A stretch of DNA of 64,000 nucleotides from Myxococcota bacterium (GTDB taxonomy: Bacteria; Myxococcota_A; UBA9160; UBA4427). Each line of letters opens with the position of its first letter. Positions within the stretch are counted from its first letter, which is position 1. The notes beneath the pieces are model-generated. The model was not told the origin of the DNA, made no database searches, and was given only the letters and a program-made list of their open reading frames with translations. The position numbers and the translations under genes are program-made. The stretch spans positions 11,068-75,067 of the forward strand of contig JAYGCV010000010.1 of assembly GCA_046583195.1 (NCBI GenBank), read 5' to 3'. Of the stretch, positions 2,858 to 64,000 are shown in pieces.

Positions 2858-3678
2858 GCGAGGACATGGATCCCGATCTCAAAAAGCCGAGTTGGCTGGC
2901 TCGCGTCTGGGAGCAGGTGGGAACCCTGGTCCTGGCGGTCGCCATCGCGCTCGGGATCCGAGCGGTGTTGGTCGAGCCCTATCGGATTCCATCGGGGTCG
3001 ATGTTCCCGACCCTCCTGATCGGAGATCATCTCTTCGTCAACAAGCTCCTTTACGGGGCCAGAATCCCCTTCAGCGACTGGCACCTGCCGGCGATACGCG
3101 ACCCCGAGCGCGGGGACGTGGTTGTTTTCCAGGTGGCGCGCGATGGCAATGCCATCGTGCCCGCCGACCGCAATCCGGACCTTCCCCGCGACGATTTCAT
3201 CAAGCGCCTGGTCGGCCTTCCGGGGGACCGCATCGAGGTGAGGGCGGGCGTCCTCTACGTGAATGGCGAGGCGATGCCGCGGCAGGCCACCGGGGAGATT
3301 TTCGTGGACGAGTACGGTGGACGACTCGAGATTGAACAGGAGCGGCTCGGCGAGTGTGTCCACGCCACCCTTGACGATCCGCGCCTGCCATCGGGGAGCT
3401 GGCTCGAAAATGTCGCTCCGCGCGTGGTGCCGCCCGGCCGCTACTTCTTCATGGGAGACAACCGCGGCCATTCGCGCGACAGCCGCGACTGGGGAACCGT
3501 GCGCCGGGATGCCCTGAAGGGCCCAGCGTTCCTGATCTACTGGTCGTGGGACGTGCGCGGAAACTTCCTTCAGTTCTTCAATCCCCTCAACTGGTGGTCG
3601 GCGGAGAAGCGCTGGGGACGGGTCTTTGACCGGGTGGCGTGCGACGCGCCGCCGGGGGCGGGCACGGAGCCGCAATGA
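2854..3678 (+). CDS. lepB: Signal peptidase I
   Basis: ATG 2854 (ATGA overlap with the lepA stop). N-terminal TM helix; catalytic Ser box [10 protein letters not shown]; Lys box [11 protein letters not shown]; [14 protein letters not shown] box. The lepA-lepB pairing is conserved. Confidence 0.93.
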
Positions 3679-52357: not shown

Positions 52358-53917
52358 ATGGCGCCCGGTGGTCCGAAACCGGCGGGCGTGGGGGCCATCG
52401 CCCTTGCGCTGGCGGCCGGTGTCGCGGCCTCGCGCGCGCTCGGCTACCTGCGAGACGTTCTGCTCGCCGACCGCGTGGGCGCAGGCGGCGAGGCGGATGC
52501 CTACTACGCGGCCTTTCAGGTCCCCGACCTGCTCAACTACCTGTTGGCGGGAGGCGCGCTCGCGATCGCCTTCATCCCGCTCTACAACCGGGTTCGGAAC
52601 GCCGATGGCGACCCCGCAGCGGCAAAGCTCTTCGCGAACATTCTCGGCTGGGTGGCCGTGGTCTCGGTGCTGGGGACCGCGGCCCTGTGGTGGTACGCCG
52701 ACGCGCTGATCGCGCTCCAATTTCCGCGCTTTAGTCCTGCCGAACACGAACTGACCGTGCGGCTCACCCGCATCGTGCTTCCGGCACAGGTCTTCTTCCT
52801 GACCGGGGGGATCGCGCGCGCCGTCCTGATGGCCCACGGGCGTTTCACGGCCCAGGCGCTCGCTCCGGTGCTCTACAACGTCGCCGTGATCCTGGGCGGG
52901 TGGTGGACGGGGACGGCCGAGGGATTCGCCTGGGGCGTTCTCGTCGGCAGTTTCCTCGGTCCCTTTCTCCTCGCCTTTGCCCTCCTGCTGCGCTCCGGGC
53001 TTCCGCGCATCCGTTTGCGTATCGCCTTTGATCCATCGCTGCGCGCCTACCTGTGGCTCGCGCTCCCGCTGATGCTGGGGCTCTCGCTGGCCACCGTGGA
53101 CGAGTGGTACGAGCGCTGGTTTGGCGGTCTGCTGGCGACGGGAACCGTGGCCCACCTGGCCTACGCGCGAAAGTTGATGATGGCCCCGGTGGCGATCGTG
53201 GGGCAGGCGGTGGGCGCAGCACTGCTGCCGGTGTTGGCGCGCTTGCACGCGAACGCCAGCGAGCACGAATTCGGCCAAACCCTCGACCGCACGCTGCAGG
53301 CGGCGGTCTCGCTGGCGCTGCTGGCCGCGGGGGCTTCCTTTGCGCTGGCCCGCCCGCTGGTCGAGGTGGTCTATCGGCACGGTCGTTTCCTGGAGGCGGA
53401 CGCTGCGGCCGTGGCAGCGATTCTGGCGGTGCTCTCCTTCGGGGTGCCGGCCTGGGTCGTCCAGCAGGTCGCTGCGCGCGCCTTCTACGCCCGCGGAGAC
53501 ACCTGGCGTCCGATGATCCTGGGGAGCGTGATTGCCCTGGTCGCGATCCCGCTTTACCTCCACGCGGGGCAGGACCACGGGGCCCCGGGTCTGGCGGGGG
53601 CCGGCGTTCTGGCGATGAGCCTGAATGCCGTGGCGACCCTCGCGTGGGCGCGCTGGCGGCAAGCCTCGCCGCGCCTGGGCGCCTTCTTCGCAAGTGCTGC
53701 GCGCGCCCTCCTGGTGGCGTGCCTCAGTGCCTGGGCGGTGCGGGCGCTTGCCGGAGAGCCCGCCGCGGATTGGTCCGGGGCGGCGTTCGCGCTGGCCCGC
53801 GGCGCCTCGGTGTACGCGGCGCTCGCGCTGGGGCTCGGTTATCTGCTGGGGGGGCCGGCGCTGCGCGGCGCGCTCGGTCGACTCTGGCAGCGTCTGGCCC
53901 GGCGCCCGTCTCGATGA
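52358..53917 (+). CDS. murJ: Lipid II flippase MurJ
   Basis: Motifs: SRALGYLRDVLLADRVGAGGEADAYYAAFQVPDLL, AFIPLY. About 14 TM segments. The start is ATG 52358 or GTG 52337; the upstream part of the track ORF overlaps cstA antisense. Confidence 0.9.
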   Translation: MAPGGPKPAGVGAIALALAAGVAASRALGYLRDVLLADRVGAGGEADAYYAAFQVPDLLNYLLAGGALAIAFIPLYNRVRNADGDPAAAKLFANILGWVAVVSVLGTAALWWYADALIALQFPRFSPAEHELTVRLTRIVLPAQVFFLTGGIARAVLMAHGRFTAQALAPVLYNVAVILGGWWTGTAEGFAWGVLVGSFLGPFLLAFALLLRSGLPRIRLRIAFDPSLRAYLWLALPLMLGLSLATVDEWYERWFGGLLATGTVAHLAYARKLMMAPVAIVGQAVGAALLPVLARLHANASEHEFGQTLDRTLQAAVSLALLAAGASFALARPLVEVVYRHGRFLEADAAAVAAILAVLSFGVPAWVVQQVAARAFYARGDTWRPMILGSVIALVAIPLYLHAGQDHGAPGLAGAGVLAMSLNAVATLAWARWRQASPRLGAFFASAARALLVACLSAWAVRALAGEPAADWSGAAFALARGASVYAALALGLGYLLGGPALRGALGRLWQRLARRPSR

Positions 53918-56900
53918 CTGATGTTTCGGCTTCGGCTTCGGTCTCGGGTTCGGTCTCGGGCTGGGAGTTCTGGATCGACCGGGGAGGCACCTTCACCGAC
54001 TGCGTGGCGCTCGATCCCGACGGCGGCATGCATTGGGCGAAGCAGCTCTCGAGTGACACGGCGCCGGTCGAGGTGATTCGACAGATTCTCGAGAGAGCGG
54101 ATGCGGTCCGGCCGGGGGACGTGTTGCCGGCGTGCCTGGTGAAGTCCGGGTCGACGCTGGCGACGAATGCACTGCTCGAGCGCCGGGGGGTGCCAACGGG
54201 CCTGGTGGCGAATCGAGGTCTCAGCGGCGTCTTCGAGATCCGCACCCAGCAGCGGCCGGATCTTTTCGCCCTCGACATCCGCTGCCCGGCGCCGGTACAC
54301 GCGCTCGCCATCGAGATTCCGGGGCGGGTCGATGCCGAGGGTGCGGTCCTCGAAGCCTTCGATCCCGAGGCCGTGCGAACGGAACTTGCGAAGGCTCGCC
54401 GGGCCGGCGTGCGCTCGATCGCGGTGGCGCTGATCCACGCCTATTCGAGCCCAGAATTCGAGCGCCAGGCGGTGGCCATCGCGCGAGAGGAAGGCTTTGA
54501 ATACGCGGTGTCCTCGCACGAAGTGGCTCGCGAATTGGGGCTCCTGGCGCGCGGTGAGACCGCGGCCGTGGATGCCTACCTGACACCGCTGCTCCGGGAG
54601 CACGTCGAAGGGCTGCAGGCTGCGCTGCCCGGGTCGGTGCTGCGCTTCATGCAATCGTCGGGCGGGCTGGCCTCGGCCGAGCGTTATCGCGGTCCCACGG
54701 CGTTGCTCTCGGGGCCCGCGGGTGGCGTGGTGGCGGCGGCACGGGTGGCCCGCGAAGCCGGATTCGATCGCGCCCTCACCTTTGACATGGGGGGAACCTC
54801 AACGGACGTCTCGCTGGTGCGTGGGGCGACGCCGGAAGCCACCTTCGAATCCGAGATCGGGGGCGTGCGCGTGCTGGCCCCGATGTTGCGGATCCATACG
54901 GTCGCGGCCGGCGGCGGCTCCCGATGCCGTTTTGACGGCTTCCGGCAGAGTGTCGGGCCCGAGAGTACCGGCGCCGATCCGGGCCCCCTCTGTTATGGGC
55001 GGGCCTCGGGTGACAGTACGGAACATGAGCCTTCCGGGGGACTTGCCCTCACTGATGTCAACTATTTTCTAGGAAGAATCCAGGGCGATCGCTTCCCCTT
55101 CACGCTGTCGCAAGAGCCGGTCGTACGGGCGCTCGAGGCCGTCCAGGCGGAGTTGGCCGCAGCCGGCTTCGAGCGCGACCTCGATGCCGTGGCGGCCGGC
55201 TTTGTCGAGGTCGCGAACGCCAACATGGCCCAGGCGATCCAGCGGGTTTCGGTCGCTCGCGGCGCCGATCCACGCGACTTCGTGCTGGTGGGCTTCGGCG
55301 GCGCGGGCGGCCAGCATGTGTGTGCGTTGGCGCGCACGCTTTCGATTCGGCGCGTGCTGCTGCACCCGCTGGCAGGCTTGCTCTCGGCCTACGGGATCGG
55401 GGTTGCCGAGGCGCGCTGGGATCGCTCCCGGGATGTCGGGCGCGTGCACCTGCCGCGGGATTCGACGGCGCTTCCCGAGAGCCTCGTCGCCACGCTTGCC
55501 GAACTCGAGGCCAGCGGCCGGAGCGAACTGGCGGAGGATGGGGTCTCGGAGTCGGATGCCGTGTGGGAGCATTTCCTCGACCTCCGCTACGCGGGCACCG
55601 ACACCGCACTCTCGATCCTGTGCCCGCCTGCGGAGGGAACTCTGTGCGAGGCCTTCCTGGCGGAACATCAGCAGCGCTTCGGCTACTGCCGCGAGGATCG
55701 CGCGATCGAGATCGTGACCGCCCGGGTGCGCGGACGGGGCGCGCCGCGCGCCGTGGGCTTCCGCCCCGAAAGCGTCGGGGTCGCCGCGAAAACGAAAGGC
55801 GCATCCCCGAAGCCGCTTCGCTACGAGACCATCTGGTTTCCGGATGTCGGAAGGCAGCGAGTCCCGATCTACGCCCGCGAGGACCTGCGGCCGGGGTTTA
55901 CGAGGGAGGGCCCGTTCCTCGTGCTCGAGGCGACGGGGACGGTGGCGGTCGACCCGGGGTTTCGCGCTCGCGTCGAGGTCGGTGGTCTGCTGATCCTCGA
56001 AACCGATGGCGCAGCCATGGCTGCGAAACCGGACCCCCTGGAAGAGGCCGACCCCGTGCGCCTCGAGGTCTTCGGGAACCGCTTCATGGCCCTGGCCGAG
56101 CAGATGGGAGCCGTGCTCCGAAACACCGCGGTCTCCACCAACATCAAGGATCGCCTCGACTACTCCTGCGCGGTCTTCGACGCCGAAGGCGGACTGATCG
56201 CCAACGCGCCGCATATCCCGGTGCATCTCGGCGCCATGCAGGAGACGGTTCGCGCGGTCCGCGAGCGCTTCCCCGAACTTCTCGAGGGCGAGGCCGTCGC
56301 CACCAACGACCCCCTCGCCGGGGGCTCGCATCTCCCCGACGTGACCCTGGTGACGCCGGTTTTCCTGGACTCGGCGCGGCCGGTGTTCTTCGTGGCCAGC
56401 CGCGGGCATCACGCCGATATCGGCGGGCGCACGCCCGGATCGATGCCGCCGGATTCCCGGAGCCTCGAGGAAGAGGGGGTCGTTCTCGAACCCTTTCGGT
56501 TGCTTCGCGGAGGCGTCTTCGATGCCGAGGAACTCGCGCGCCGGCTCGGCGCGGGGCGGTTTCCGGCGCGCTGTCCGGACGACAACCGGGCCGATCTCGA
56601 GGCCATGGTGGCGGCCAACCGCGCGGGCAGCCGCTGGCTGGCAGAATTCGTGACCGAGGTGGGTCGCGAGCGGGTGGAGGCGACGACGCGCCAACTGCAG
56701 CGGGCCGCCGGGGAAAAGGTGGCGGCTGAGATCGCGAAGCTGCGCGACGGGGAGCATCGCTTCGAGGACCGCATGGACGATGGCACGCCGGTGTGTGTCA
56801 CGCTGCGGGTCCGCGGTGACCGGATGCAGGTCGATTTCGAGGGCACGGGCCCTCCCAGTCCGACCAATCTCAACGCGCCGCGGGCGGTGGTGCACGCGGC

Positions 56901-57597
56901 GGTGCTCTATGTCCTGCGCGCCCTGGTCAACGAGGCGATTCCACTCAATGGGGGGTGTCTCCAGCCGGTGGAGATCACGATCCCCCCGAATTCCCTGCTC
57001 GACCCCGCGCCGGGTGCCGCAGTCGTGGGCGGGAACGTCGAAACCTCCCAGCGGATCGTCGATGTCCTGCTCGGCGCGCTGGGGCGCGCCGCGGCGAGCC
57101 AGGGCACGATGAACAACGTGACCTTCGGCAACCAGGATTTTGCCTACTACGAGACGCTGGGCGGGGGAGCGGGAGCGGGTCCGGACTTTGAGGGCGCCTC
57201 GGGAGTGCACACCCACATGACGAATACGAGGATCACCGACGCAGAGATCCTGGAGGTGCGCTTTCCGGTTCGACTGATCGAGTTCGGCCTGCGCGCCGGC
57301 TCGGGAGGCGCCGGGCGCACGCGCGGCGGCGATGGCGTCGTCCGCACCTTTGAGTTCACGGCGCCGGTCACGGTGAGTCTTCTCGCCGAGCGTCGGGAGA
57401 CGGCACCCTTTGGGCTCGAAGGCGGGGAGCCGGGCCAGCGGGGGAGGCACTGGGCCGTGCGCAATGGCGAGTGGGAAGCCTTGCCCGGTCACTGCAGTAT
57501 CGAACTCTCCGCCGGGGATCGACTCGGGATCGAGACGCCCGGCGGCGGCGGTTTTGGGCGCGCTTCGGGTCTTGCCGCCGACCCGCCTTCCCTCTAA
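53914..57597 (+). CDS. Fused hydantoinase/oxoprolinase (HyuA-HyuB type, ATP-dependent 5-oxoprolinase-like)
   Basis: ATG 53914 (ATGA overlap with the murJ stop). [17 protein letters not shown]-terminus; [10 protein letters not shown] (hydantoinase A ATPase fold). C-terminal hydantoinase B region: [42 protein letters not shown]. 1227 aa. Confidence 0.9.
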
Positions 57598-57606
57598 GGT
57601 CGGCAT

Positions 57607-57682
57607 GGGCGCGTAGCTCAATTGGCAGAGCAAGGGACTCTTAATCCCTAGGTTCGGGGTTCGATTCCCCGCGCGCTCACCA
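57607..57682 (+). tRNA. tRNA-Lys (anticodon CUU), CCA encoded
   Basis: Manual cloverleaf: acceptor GGGCGCG/CGCGCTC (one G-U pair), D arm GCTC..GAGC, anticodon arm AGGGA-CTCTTAA-TCCCT, T arm CGGGG-TTCGATT-CCCCG, then A-CCA. Confidence 0.9.
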
Positions 57683-58864: not shown

Positions 58865-58951
58865 GCCCGGATGGCGGAACTGGCAGACGCTCAAGATTTA
58901 GGATCTTGTGTCCGAAAGGACGTGCGAGTTCGAATCTCGCTCCGGGCACCA
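58865..58951 (+). tRNA. tRNA-Leu (anticodon UAG), long variable arm, CCA encoded
   Basis: Acceptor GCCCGGA/TCCGGGC, anticodon arm CAAGA-TTTAGGA-TCTTG, variable arm GTCCGAAAGGAC, T arm GCGAG-TTCGAAT-CTCGC, then A-CCA. Confidence 0.9.
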
Positions 58952-59044: not shown

Positions 59045-60424
59045 ATGACCCCCACCGATTCCCGTGCGCCGCTAGAGGACTCGCTTCGCGAGCCCACGCC
59101 TCCGGGTGAGGAGGTTGCGAGCGCTCGGGCCGACCTCCGCGTCAAGGTGGGGCAGGACGGTTCGGCCGTCCGCACGCTGATCGTGGAAGTGGGCCCCAAG
59201 CGCGTGGCGGCGATTTTCGATCGTGCCTACAAGGGCATCGGCCGGGGAGCCTCGGTCAAGGGATTCCGCAAGGGGAAGGTTCCAAAGAGTGTGCTCCGCA
59301 AGCTCTACGGCCATTCGCTCGGGCACGATGTGCAGCGGGTCCTGATCGAGGAAACGCTCCCGGATGCCATCGAACTCTCCGGCTATCGGCCGATCGTCGC
59401 GCCCGGCCTCGATGCCCCCGAGCCCGTGGAGACCGAAGGGTTTCGTTACACCGCACGCCTCGAATTGCGTCCCGAGATCCAGTTGCCGGACCTTGCGGGG
59501 TTGACCGCGACGCGGCCCGATACGCAGGTCGAGGAGGCGGAACTCGAGGAGCGACTCGAGGGGATCCGCGAGAGCCATGCCAAGCTCGTGGAAGAGCCCG
59601 AAGGCAGCGCGGCCGTAACCGGGCAGGTGCTCAAGATCGACTTCCAGGGGCGCATCGACGACGAACTCTTCGATGGCGGTAGCGCCGAGGGCGCCGAGGT
59701 GGAACTGGGCTCGGATCGTTTCATTCCCGGTTTCGAAGAACAACTGGTGGGTGCCGTGGCGGGCCAGGACCGGGAAGTCGAGGTGCAGTTTCCCGAAGAT
59801 TACAGCGCCGCCGAACTGGCGGGAAAGAAGGCGCACTTCGCGGTTCAGGTGCGTGCGGTCTGCAGTCGCAAGAAGCCCGACCTCGACGACGAGTTCGCGA
59901 AGGACCTCGGAGAATTCGAGACCCTCGAGGAACTGCGTACGAAGCTTCGCGAACAGATGCAGGAACAGAGCGAGCGCGCGGCGAAATCTGCGGTGCGTCG
60001 CGGCGTACTCGATGCGTTGCTCGAGGAGGTCGACTTCGAGGTCGGCCCGGCCACGGTGGAGAAGCAGCTCGAGGCGCACCTCCACTCGATGGTGCGGCGC
60101 TTTCAGGGACAGGTCCCGGACGAAGTCATTCGCGAGCAGGTCGAGCGCGCTCGCGAGGAGGGGCGACCGGGAGCGGAGCGCCGGGTCCGGGAGCGGCTGG
60201 TGCTCGACGAGGTGGCGACCCTCTGCGAAATCGTCGTGCCCGACGAGGCTCTTGACCAGCGGCTCGGTGAGATGGCCGCGGCCGAGGGCATGGACCCGAA
60301 GCAACTCGCGAAGCTGGCCCGGGACCAGGGCTGGATCGAAGCGCTGCGCGAAGAACTGCGCGAGGAGCAGGCTCTGGACCAGTTGGTTGCGAAAGCGAAG
60401 ATCGTAGGAGTGGCTACCGACTGA
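59045..60424 (+). CDS. tig: Trigger factor
   Basis: Ribosome-binding signature GFRKGKVPKSVL; FKBP-type PPIase core DFQGRIDDELFDGGSAEG...GSDRFIPGFEEQLVG. Located directly upstream of clpP-clpX-lon. It has an N-terminal ~30 aa extension relative to typical Tig. Confidence 0.93.
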   Translation: MTPTDSRAPLEDSLREPTPPGEEVASARADLRVKVGQDGSAVRTLIVEVGPKRVAAIFDRAYKGIGRGASVKGFRKGKVPKSVLRKLYGHSLGHDVQRVLIEETLPDAIELSGYRPIVAPGLDAPEPVETEGFRYTARLELRPEIQLPDLAGLTATRPDTQVEEAELEERLEGIRESHAKLVEEPEGSAAVTGQVLKIDFQGRIDDELFDGGSAEGAEVELGSDRFIPGFEEQLVGAVAGQDREVEVQFPEDYSAAELAGKKAHFAVQVRAVCSRKKPDLDDEFAKDLGEFETLEELRTKLREQMQEQSERAAKSAVRRGVLDALLEEVDFEVGPATVEKQLEAHLHSMVRRFQGQVPDEVIREQVERAREEGRPGAERRVRERLVLDEVATLCEIVVPDEALDQRLGEMAAAEGMDPKQLAKLARDQGWIEALREELREEQALDQLVAKAKIVGVATD

Positions 60425-60667
60425 GATTGGCGTAGGACGGACCCGGAGTTCCGCTTTCCCCCCGCACGGTTCGCGAGTTTTTCCCCTTGGTTGCGTGAAC
60501 GCCGGCAGGACGCCTCACGCCTGCGCGTGTCGGCACGGTGAGTGGCTGCGCTTGCCCCATCTGCAGCCGGGGGTAGGATGGGAAATCGGGGGAGGCCCGG
60601 TGAGCTTCCGAATTCAGGCTGATGCAGCGCGCTGCCTTGCGGGGCGCGCGGGGAGAGTCCATCCAGA

Positions 60668-61306
60668 ATGGCGGTGATCCCGTACGTAATTGAACAGAGC
60701 CCGCGTGGCGAGCGGGTCTTTGACATCTATTCGAGGCTGCTGCGCGACCGGGTGATTTTCCTCGGCACCGAAGTCGACGACAACGTCGCCAACGTCATCG
60801 TTGCCCAGCTGCTCTTTCTCGAAGCAGACGATCCGGACAAGGACATCTCGCTCTACATCAATTCGCCGGGCGGGTCCGTCACCGCTGGGCTTGCGGTGTA
60901 CGACACCATGCAGTTCGTGCGCCCCGAAATCGCCACCACCTGCATCGGGCAGGCTTCCCCGATGGGTGCCTGGCTGCTGGCGGCGGGCACCCCTGGGAAG
61001 CGTGTCGCCCTCGCGAATTCGCGCGTGTTGATCCACCAGCCGATGGGAGGCGCAAGGGGGCAGGCCACCGACATCCATATCCAGGCCCGGGAGATCCTGA
61101 AGTTGCGCGTGCGGATGAACGAGATCCTTGCACGTCATACAGGGCGCTCGGCCGAGCAGATCGCGCAGGATACCGAGCGGGACTACTATATGTCGGCAGA
61201 TGAGGCGCTCGAATACGGAGTGGTGGATCGCGTGGTGAGTCATCGAGACGCGGTGCGGACCGCGATTGGCCGTGATGGAAAGTTCTCGGAGGGGGGCCGG
61301 GAGTGA
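60668..61306 (+). CDS. clpP: ATP-dependent Clp protease proteolytic subunit, with an atypical nucleophile motif
   Basis: Motifs: [51 protein letters not shown] (His), ERDYYMSA (Asp). The Ser box reads [13 protein letters not shown] instead of GQAASMGAFLL (see findings). Confidence 0.9.
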
Positions 61307-62550
61307 AGAAACGTGACGATGGGACCAATCTGTCGTGCTCCTTCTGCGGCAAGAGCCAGAAGGAAGTAAAGAAGCTCATCGCCGGGCCGACGGTCTACAT
61401 CTGCGACGAGTGCATCGAACTCTGCAATGACATCATTGCCGAGGAGTACGGCCACGAGGATCCCGCGCCGAAGCACTCGCGGGTGCCGAAGCCGAAAGAG
61501 ATCCACGCCGCCCTCGACGAGTACGTCATCGGGCAGGAGCAGGCGAAGAAGGTCCTCTCGGTGGCGGTCCACAACCACTACAAGAGGATCGACACCGGCG
61601 GGTCGGTCTCCGATGTCGAGCTCCAGAAGGCGAACATCCTGCTGCTCGGGCCGACGGGCTCGGGGAAGACGCTCCTCGCCCAGACCCTCGCCCGTATCCT
61701 CGACGTCCCCTTTACGATCGCCGACGCCACCACGCTGACCGAGGCAGGCTACGTCGGAGAAGACGTCGAGAACATCGTCCTCAATCTTCTCCAGGTGGCG
61801 AACTACGACGTCGAGCAAGCCCAGCGCGGGATCATCTACATCGACGAGATCGACAAGGTCGCGCGCAAGAGCGAGAACCCCTCGATCACCCGGGACGTGT
61901 CGGGGGAGGGCGTGCAGCAGGCCCTGCTCAAGATCATCGAGGGCACCACCGCCAGCGTCCCGCCCAAGGGGGGCCGCAAGCACCCGCAGCAGGAGTTCGT
62001 CCAGGTCGACACCTCGAACATCCTCTTCATCTGCGGGGGCGCCTTTGTTGGCCTCGATTCGATCATCGAGCGGCGAATCGGGGTGAAGGGCCTGGGCTTC
62101 GGTGCGGACATCCAAACCAAGGAAAATCGCGATGCCGAAGACGTCCTGAAGCGCGCGCAAGCCGAGGATCTTCTCGGTTTCGGTTTGATTCCGGAGTTCA
62201 TCGGACGCCTGCCCGTGGTGGCGACCCTCGGACAGCTCGACGAAGCCGCGCTCATCCGGATCCTCACCGAGCCCAAGAATGCGCTGGTCAAGCAGTACCA
62301 GAAGCTCTTCGAATTTGAGGGCGTAGGGCTGCGCTTCAGCGAAGGCGCACTGGCTGCGGTCGCGCGCAAAGCGCTGAAGCGAAAGTCCGGGGCCCGCGGC
62401 CTGCGCGCGATTCTCGAGAAGGCGATGCTCGACGTGATGTACGAACTTCCGTCGCGCGACAACGTAGAGGAGTGTGTGGTCGGTGTGGAGGTGATCGAGC
62501 AGGGAGCCGATCCCCTGCTGGTGATCAAGGCGGAAGCGGAGACGGCCTGA
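61303..62550 (+). CDS. clpX: ATP-dependent Clp protease ATP-binding subunit ClpX
   Basis: GTG 61303 (GTGA overlap with the clpP stop). Zinc-binding domain [30 protein letters not shown]; Walker A GPTGSGKT; IIYIDEIDK; sensor GARGLR. Confidence 0.97.
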
Positions 62551-62613: not shown

Positions 62614-64000
62614 ATGGCGATCATTCGGGACGAAGACGAGACAGGGGATGCCGACGCCGGCTCGACGAAGCCGGAACGCCGGCTCGTCCCGCTGATGCCG
62701 CTACGCGACATCGTCGTATTTCCGCACATGGTGGTGCCGCTCTTCGTGGGGAGGGCGAAGTCGATCCAGGCGCTCGAGGACGCGGTGGCGGGCAACCGCG
62801 AACTTCTCCTGGCGGCGCAGAAGCACGCGGGACAGGACGAGCCCGGGCCCGAAGACATCCATCGCATCGGGACACTCGGCTCGATCGTGCAGCTCCTGCG
62901 GCTCCCGGACGGCACCGTAAAGGTGCTGGTCGAGGGGAAGGTGCGTGCACGCATCGAGTCCTTCGAGGAGGAGTCCGCGTACTTCTCCTGCGAAATCAAG
63001 GAACTCGCCGACCCCAGCGAGATCAGCGTCGAGTCCGAGGCCCTGGTGAGGACCGTCCACAGCGCCTTTGAAGGCTACGTGAAGCTCAACAAGAAGGTGC
63101 CCCAGGAATTGCTCAACTCGGTTTCGGCGATCCTCGAGCCCGGGCGCCTCGCCGACACGATCGTTGCGCATCTGAACCTGAAGCTCGAGGAGCGGCAGCA
63201 GGTGCTCGAGGCCAGTGATCCGCACCGCCGGCTCGAAAACGTCTACGCCCGCATGCAGGCAGAAGTCGAAGTCCTCGAGGTCGAGCGAAAGATCCGGGGC
63301 CGCGTCAAGAAGCAGATGGAGCGCTCCCAGAAGGAGTACTACCTGAACGAGCAGATGCGGGCGATCCAGAAGGAGCTCGGCGATCGCGACGACGCGAAGA
63401 ACGAGATGGCCGAACTCGAGGAGCAGCTCGCGGCGAAATCCATGCCCGACGACGCACGCGAACGCGCCGAGAAGGAGATCCGCAAGCTCAAGATGATGTC
63501 GCCCATGAGCGCCGAAGCGACGGTCATTCGCAACTACATCGACTGGGTGATCGCGCTGCCATGGGACGAGTGTCGCGAGGAGGAGAAAGACATCGGGCGC
63601 GCCGAGCAGGTCCTTAACGAAGACCACTACGGGCTGGAAAAGCCCAAGGACCGGATTCTCGAGTACCTCGCGGTTCAGACCCTGGTCGAGAAGATGCGCG
63701 GTCCGATTCTCTGCTTCGTGGGCCCGCCGGGCGTCGGCAAGACCTCCCTGGGGAAGTCGATCGCCCGGGCGACCGACCGCGACTTCGTGCGGGTGAGCCT
63801 CGGCGGCGTGCGGGACGAGGCCGAAATTCGCGGTCACCGCCGTACCTACATCGGCGCCCTCCCCGGAAAAATCCTGCAGTCGCTGAAGAAGGCGGGGTCG
63901 AGCAACCCGGTCTTCGTGCTCGACGAAGTCGACAAGATGTCGATGGACTTTCGGGGGGATCCCTCGGCGGCATTGCTCGAGGTCCTCGATCCCGAGCAGA
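62614..64000 (+). CDS. lon: Lon protease (N-terminal ~460 codons; 3' end beyond the window)
   Basis: It is not in the ORF track because it is open-ended. ATG 62614 follows GAGGAGAG. Motifs: [23 protein letters not shown] (LON N-domain), [16 protein letters not shown], Walker [19 protein letters not shown] (Walker B). Confidence 0.95.

Follow-up and report, generated by a model that had tools for sequence, protein, structure and literature searches.

A proline codon at the catalytic serine position of clpP in a marine Myxococcota assembly and the single private base behind it

Introduction

Has an uncultured marine Myxococcota species evolved a new kind of ClpP subunit, did the sampled cells carry a disabled allele of an ordinary clpP, or was one base of the gene misread? 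The question is raised by a 64-kb stretch of DNA from an environmental assembly (hereafter the window, meaning the whole of that stretch), in which the clpP gene encodes proline at the position of the catalytic serine. An earlier reading of this DNA, referred to below as the preliminary description, had drawn attention to the proline. Here, the gene is compared with its homologues and, base by base, with contigs of the same species.

Results

Identity and context of the clpP gene

The bases at 60941-60967 (tgc atc ggg cag gct tcc ccg atg ggt) encode C92-I93-G94-Q95-A96-S97-P98-M99-G100, and residues 1-194 of the product aligned with E. coli ClpP without gaps in a phmmer comparison with PDB sequences (matches at E about 1e-85). 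In this alignment, the segment GQASPMGAW of the window faces GQAASMGAF of the E. coli protein, and P98 stands at the nucleophile, which is Ser97 of mature E. coli ClpP. The preliminary description had read the motif in the same way, and both the codons and the gapless alignment bear it out; its statement that the His and Asp of the triad are intact holds as well. With respect to the Ser-His-Asp triad of the family (Ser97, His122 and Asp171 in mature E. coli ClpP), the product has His123 and Asp172, and Pro98 in place of the serine.

Full-length profile matches were obtained above the curated cutoffs. The Pfam model CLP_protease (PF00574) scored 275.6 bits against a cutoff of 20.2, covering profile positions 2-181 of 182, and the NCBIfam clpP equivalog TIGR00493 scored 330.3 bits against a cutoff of 308.6, covering positions 1-192 of 192. 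The latter score was 3.4 bits under that of the Ser-bearing sister. Linkage to a Clp ATPase was also found, as clpX lies immediately downstream and the relatives are arranged alike. Judged by profile and position, the window gene is clpP by descent, and its product as written would not be an active member of the family.

The genes tig, clpP, clpX and lon form a conserved block whose order is shared by the relatives (Table 1). The end of clpP at 61306 and the start of clpX at 61303 give a four-base overlap (GTGA), in agreement with the translational coupling of the two genes that had been proposed for this locus. When ClpP was searched by tblastn over the 64-kb window, no second clpP was found, and the gene is, as had also been stated, the only clpP of the window. 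Upstream of tig, a tRNA-Lys(CTT) at 57607-57682 and a tRNA-Leu(TAG) at 58865-58951 stand on either side of a gene for a luciferase-like monooxygenase, with the tRNA-Leu directly before tig. Further upstream, the program-made list of open reading frames has a hydantoinase/oxoprolinase-like gene at 53053-57597, with a GTG start and 1514 aa. In the relatives, this gene encodes 1227 aa from a start at about 53914 and overlaps the end of a MurJ-like gene; the 1514-aa frame is a high-GC read-through artefact.

Two starts have been given for clpP. The NCBI record (P0125, 224 aa) is longer by 12 codons and begins at a non-standard CTG (60632-60634), upstream of the ATG at 60668. The purine run GGGGAGAG, placed as in Table 1, supports the 212-aa start over the NCBI start. 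The 212-aa start is also the one used by the gene calls in all relatives, and it agrees with the start of mature E. coli ClpP. The 224-aa call is probably an annotation artefact.

Table 1. Features of the clpP region, numbered from the first base of the window
Feature	Position	Strand	Basis
tig (trigger factor), upstream neighbour of clpP	59045..60424	+	Pfam Trigger_N, FKBP_C, Trigger_C
GGGGAGAG, Shine-Dalgarno-like purine run	60650..60657	+	10 nt upstream of ATG 60668, read from the sequence
clpP, housekeeping ClpP proteolytic subunit	60668..61306	+	ORF list; 212 codons and a TGA stop
Codon 97, TCC, Ser, usual for the lineage (A-S-S-M-G; Ala in E. coli)	60956..60958	+	
Codon 98, CCG, Pro, position of the catalytic serine nucleophile	60959..60961	+	Sequence and alignment with E. 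coli ClpP
Private base, C in the window, T in all 15 same-species contigs	60959..60959	+	Base-by-base comparison
Codon 123, CAC, intact triad His	61034..61036	+	
Codon 172, GAC, intact triad Asp	61181..61183	+	
clpX, 415 aa, zinc finger and AAA+ domain	61303..62550	+	GTG start
lon, 5' part, cut by the end of the window	62614..64000	+	Gapless alignment to contigs L010/L003, where the gene has Lon domains

A single base separates the window from same-species contigs

Fifteen contigs of the same species (L001-L014 and L068), taken from ENA, JGI, NCBI and Logan and originating from independent samples, served as comparators. Their DNA identity to the window was 98.0-99.75%, and the long alignments, of up to 13.3 kb, were without indels. 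Every one of the 15 reads GCT TCC TCG ATG, compared with GCT TCC CCG ATG in the window. Since the close relatives already have GCT TCC TCG, one T>C change at 60959 (TCG to CCG) explains the whole difference, and it turns CCTCG into a run of CCCC. The ancestral residue 98 is serine. The preliminary description had considered a sequence error of two bases, from GCC TCG to TCC CCG. That an error lies behind the proline is possible; that two bases are wrong is not the case, and what appeared to be a rearrangement of two residues is corrected to a single transition.

The same comparison bears on the serine that directly precedes Pro98. With His123 and Asp172 intact, this residue had been put forward as a shifted nucleophile, Ser97 now being the catalytic residue of a ClpP that is active at a displaced site. 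However, Ser97 is older than the change: Ser97 and Ser98 occur together in 15/15 of the same-species contigs, and of the 120 best homologues, 41 have both serines (A-S-S-M-[GA]). Lineages differ in the residue that precedes the nucleophile, the motif being A-S-S-M-G here and A-A-S-M-G, C-A-S-M-G or A-C-S-M-G elsewhere. The counterpart of Ser97 is Ala96 in E. coli ClpP, alanine in most ClpPs and cysteine in some active ones, which argues that the position has no catalytic role. It lies across the turn from the nucleophile, and reach to His123 is not expected. A serine beside the nucleophile is therefore normal in this clade and should not be taken for a spare one; residue 97 is, to judge by these alignments, a small packing residue. 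A shift would further require that a single mutation abolish the old nucleophile and build a new geometry at once, and S-P-M-G was absent from the other sequences searched, whether homologues, fetched loci, or the metagenome and genome collections. An active enzyme with Ser97 as its nucleophile is accordingly regarded as highly improbable.

Proline at residue 98 is a singleton

In a collection of 5.8 billion proteins, the 120 best homologues carried serine at the nucleophile position without exception (Ser 120/120, Pro 0/120), and the motif was A-A-S-M or A-S-S-M throughout. Among 160 fetched ClpP loci, the site corresponding to residue 98 was Ser in 159 and Asn in one. The two nearest clusters at 90% identity hold 16 sequences and, besides P0125, all 13 that cover residue 98 have serine there. 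The only identical protein is P0125 itself (NCBI MFP6563014.1), which almost certainly is the record of the window itself; when the 212-aa and the 224-aa protein were looked up by exact sequence, no gene position was on record in another assembly.

The Pro allele was also searched for as DNA, by a degenerate pattern that encodes C-[IVM]-G-Q-A-x-P-M-G-A-W. Neither the metagenome collection nor a set of 185,579 species-representative genomes yielded a match. With a serine codon (TCN) in place of the proline codon, the pattern matched 66 metagenome loci, so a search of this kind does detect clpP. Partial proteins were approached with a 63-aa fragment, a search that scored short proteins only (61-111 aa among the 26 listed); Pro98 was not found among its 31 candidates, whose best identity was 70%, making this a weak negative. 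In the genome collection, the top identity among the best 80 of at least 580 ClpP loci was 83%, and the window's species was not among the matches listed.

Within the sequences searched, Pro98 is a singleton and S-P-M-G is not a variant of the family. The preliminary description had allowed that S-P-M-G might prove to be a common active variant, for which no example was seen at all. As Pro98 is unseen in the other homologues examined, it is not a conserved variant of either the ClpR-like or the shifted-nucleophile type, and the evidence argues strongly against its being conserved or adaptive.

The one asparagine belongs to locus L114, positions 3001-3609 of CANJLI010000032.1, from the MAG Deltaproteobacteria bacterium RH-23may17-178. 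Its ClpP reads C-I-G-Q-C-A-N-M-G, with AAT (Asn) at about 3293-3295 where the relatives have Ser, one transition away from AGT. This one-off asparagine indicates that such replacements recur in MAG data, and its frequency, one in 160 ClpP loci, provides a rough base rate for a nucleophile other than Ser.

The possibility of an evolved, ClpR-like subunit was weighed against these counts. Under this explanation, the window protein would be a non-catalytic member of a mixed ring whose second, active ClpP is encoded elsewhere. The nucleophile is indeed gone and, as the paralogue search spans the 64-kb window, a second clpP may lie outside it. However, the loss is not conserved across the clade: relatives at least 99% identical in DNA keep the serine, as do 15/15 same-species contigs and 120/120 homologues, and the Pro pattern had no matches. 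The gene is moreover the housekeeping copy, coupled to clpX and scoring above the clpP equivalog cutoff. Nor is the whole triad lost, only the serine being altered while His123 and Asp172 are kept. We consider it most unlikely that the proline marks a subunit of this kind.

Private variation in the contig

Between 53750 and 64000, the window differs from all comparators at 15 private positions. Of these, 13 fall within genes, seven being synonymous and six non-synonymous. Random changes would be expected to be synonymous in about 25% of cases, or in 34% if only transitions are counted; on an earlier count of seven in 14, the binomial p-value for the excess was about 0.04, or 0.16 for transitions only, a weak signal at n = 13-14. 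Apart from the change in ClpP, the private amino-acid changes are A/V, V/I and E/D exchanges and an E395V in ClpX at a variable site. A shared sequence context that would mark a systematic error was not evident among the private single-nucleotide variants (SNVs).

The lack of indels over 13.3 kb and the conservative nature of the private changes suggest that the background error in the contig is low. With a low background error, any given private SNV is a priori far likelier to be real than erroneous. On its alignments, the contig looks like a genuine, slightly diverged strain. The synonymous excess is suggestive, albeit weakly, of private SNVs that have been filtered by selection.

The private ClpX change is non-conservative and lies at 62486, in the same operon as the change in ClpP. 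Position 395 of ClpX is variable among the relatives (E, K, A, S, R, V or G), and valine occurs there in three homologues of about 82% identity. E395V was considered as a sign of relaxed selection on ClpXP or of operon decay, and was rejected because the site is variable and valine occurs in those three relatives.

Discussion

The window carries the normal housekeeping clpP of its species, an uncultured marine member of the Myxococcota, and not a new kind of ClpP. As to how it came to encode proline, we slightly prefer a real and very recent loss-of-function allele in the sampled cells, with a probability of roughly 0.5, over a base error; the proline is not an evolved feature. A null allele that is private to one strain had not been listed among the preliminary explanations. 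ClpP is dispensable in most bacteria studied and essential in some, for example M. tuberculosis (PMC6540193), and cells with a null allele could therefore survive. Apart from Pro98, the gene shows no decay, as would be expected of a very recent event. Against a real allele stands the fact that the most constrained residue has been hit, where purifying selection should purge variants fastest, and that Pro98 is known from one assembly.

These same two facts lend weight to an artefact. The C at 60959 may have arisen in sequencing, in PCR, in the assembly consensus or through the promotion of a minority read variant, the organism itself having a normal Ser98. Errors are blind to constraint, and here an otherwise invariant catalytic residue is affected, in a singleton whose identical sequence occurs only in the record that is probably the window itself. 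The change is a single transition that converts CCTCG into a CCCC run, and the MAG locus L114 likewise shows a one-off, single-transition loss of the same serine (1 of 160 loci). Against an artefact, the contig has no indels relative to its relatives across 13 kb, and the other private SNVs resemble real variation filtered by selection, which points to a low background error rate. We give the artefact somewhat short of an even chance, and hold a real private null allele to be at least as likely as an error.

If the allele is real, its consequence can be predicted. A P98 subunit would presumably still fold, form rings and dock ClpX, everything else in it being wild type. Without the serine hydroxyl, it would form no acyl-enzyme, and ClpXP would then be expected to unfold its substrates and translocate them into an inert chamber. 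Ser97 would be unable to substitute, sitting as it does where active ClpPs have alanine. The ClpP as written would thus be catalytically dead. A bolder proposition is that a wild Myxococcota strain lives with a dead, clpX-coupled ClpP as a natural 'ClpP trap' that is tolerated or even useful or, less likely still, with one that is active through Ser97; we regard this as very improbable.

The recent null allele that we favour would carry little biological weight, since it would concern, at most, a single uncultured strain and a protease that is well understood. The locus is of some practical use as an example of a striking 'active-site variant' of a MAG that disappears on base-by-base comparison with contigs of the same species. 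For annotators and other users of this MAG, residue 98 of its ClpP should be treated as suspect.

Among known systems, the window protein most closely resembles canonical ClpP, with which it shares a gapless full-length alignment, an equivalog-level score, the His and Asp of the triad, the overlap with clpX and the gene neighbourhood. It differs in having Pro for the nucleophile Ser, through one base that is private to this assembly. ClpR, known from cyanobacteria, plastids and apicoplasts, is described as being without the catalytic triad (PMC7966870). The likeness to it is that the window ClpP, as written, would be a ClpP-fold subunit unable to act as a serine protease; ClpR, however, is a separate, conserved paralogue that co-occurs with active ClpP (PMC7966870), whereas the change in the window affects one residue and is not conserved. 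Inactive E. coli ClpP serves as a substrate trap (reviewed in PMC6540193). By analogy with the Ser-to-Ala 'ClpP trap', the window protein, otherwise wild type and lacking its nucleophile, would be expected to assemble, bind ClpX and keep translocated substrates uncut, although it carries proline rather than alanine and comes from an environmental assembly rather than from engineering.
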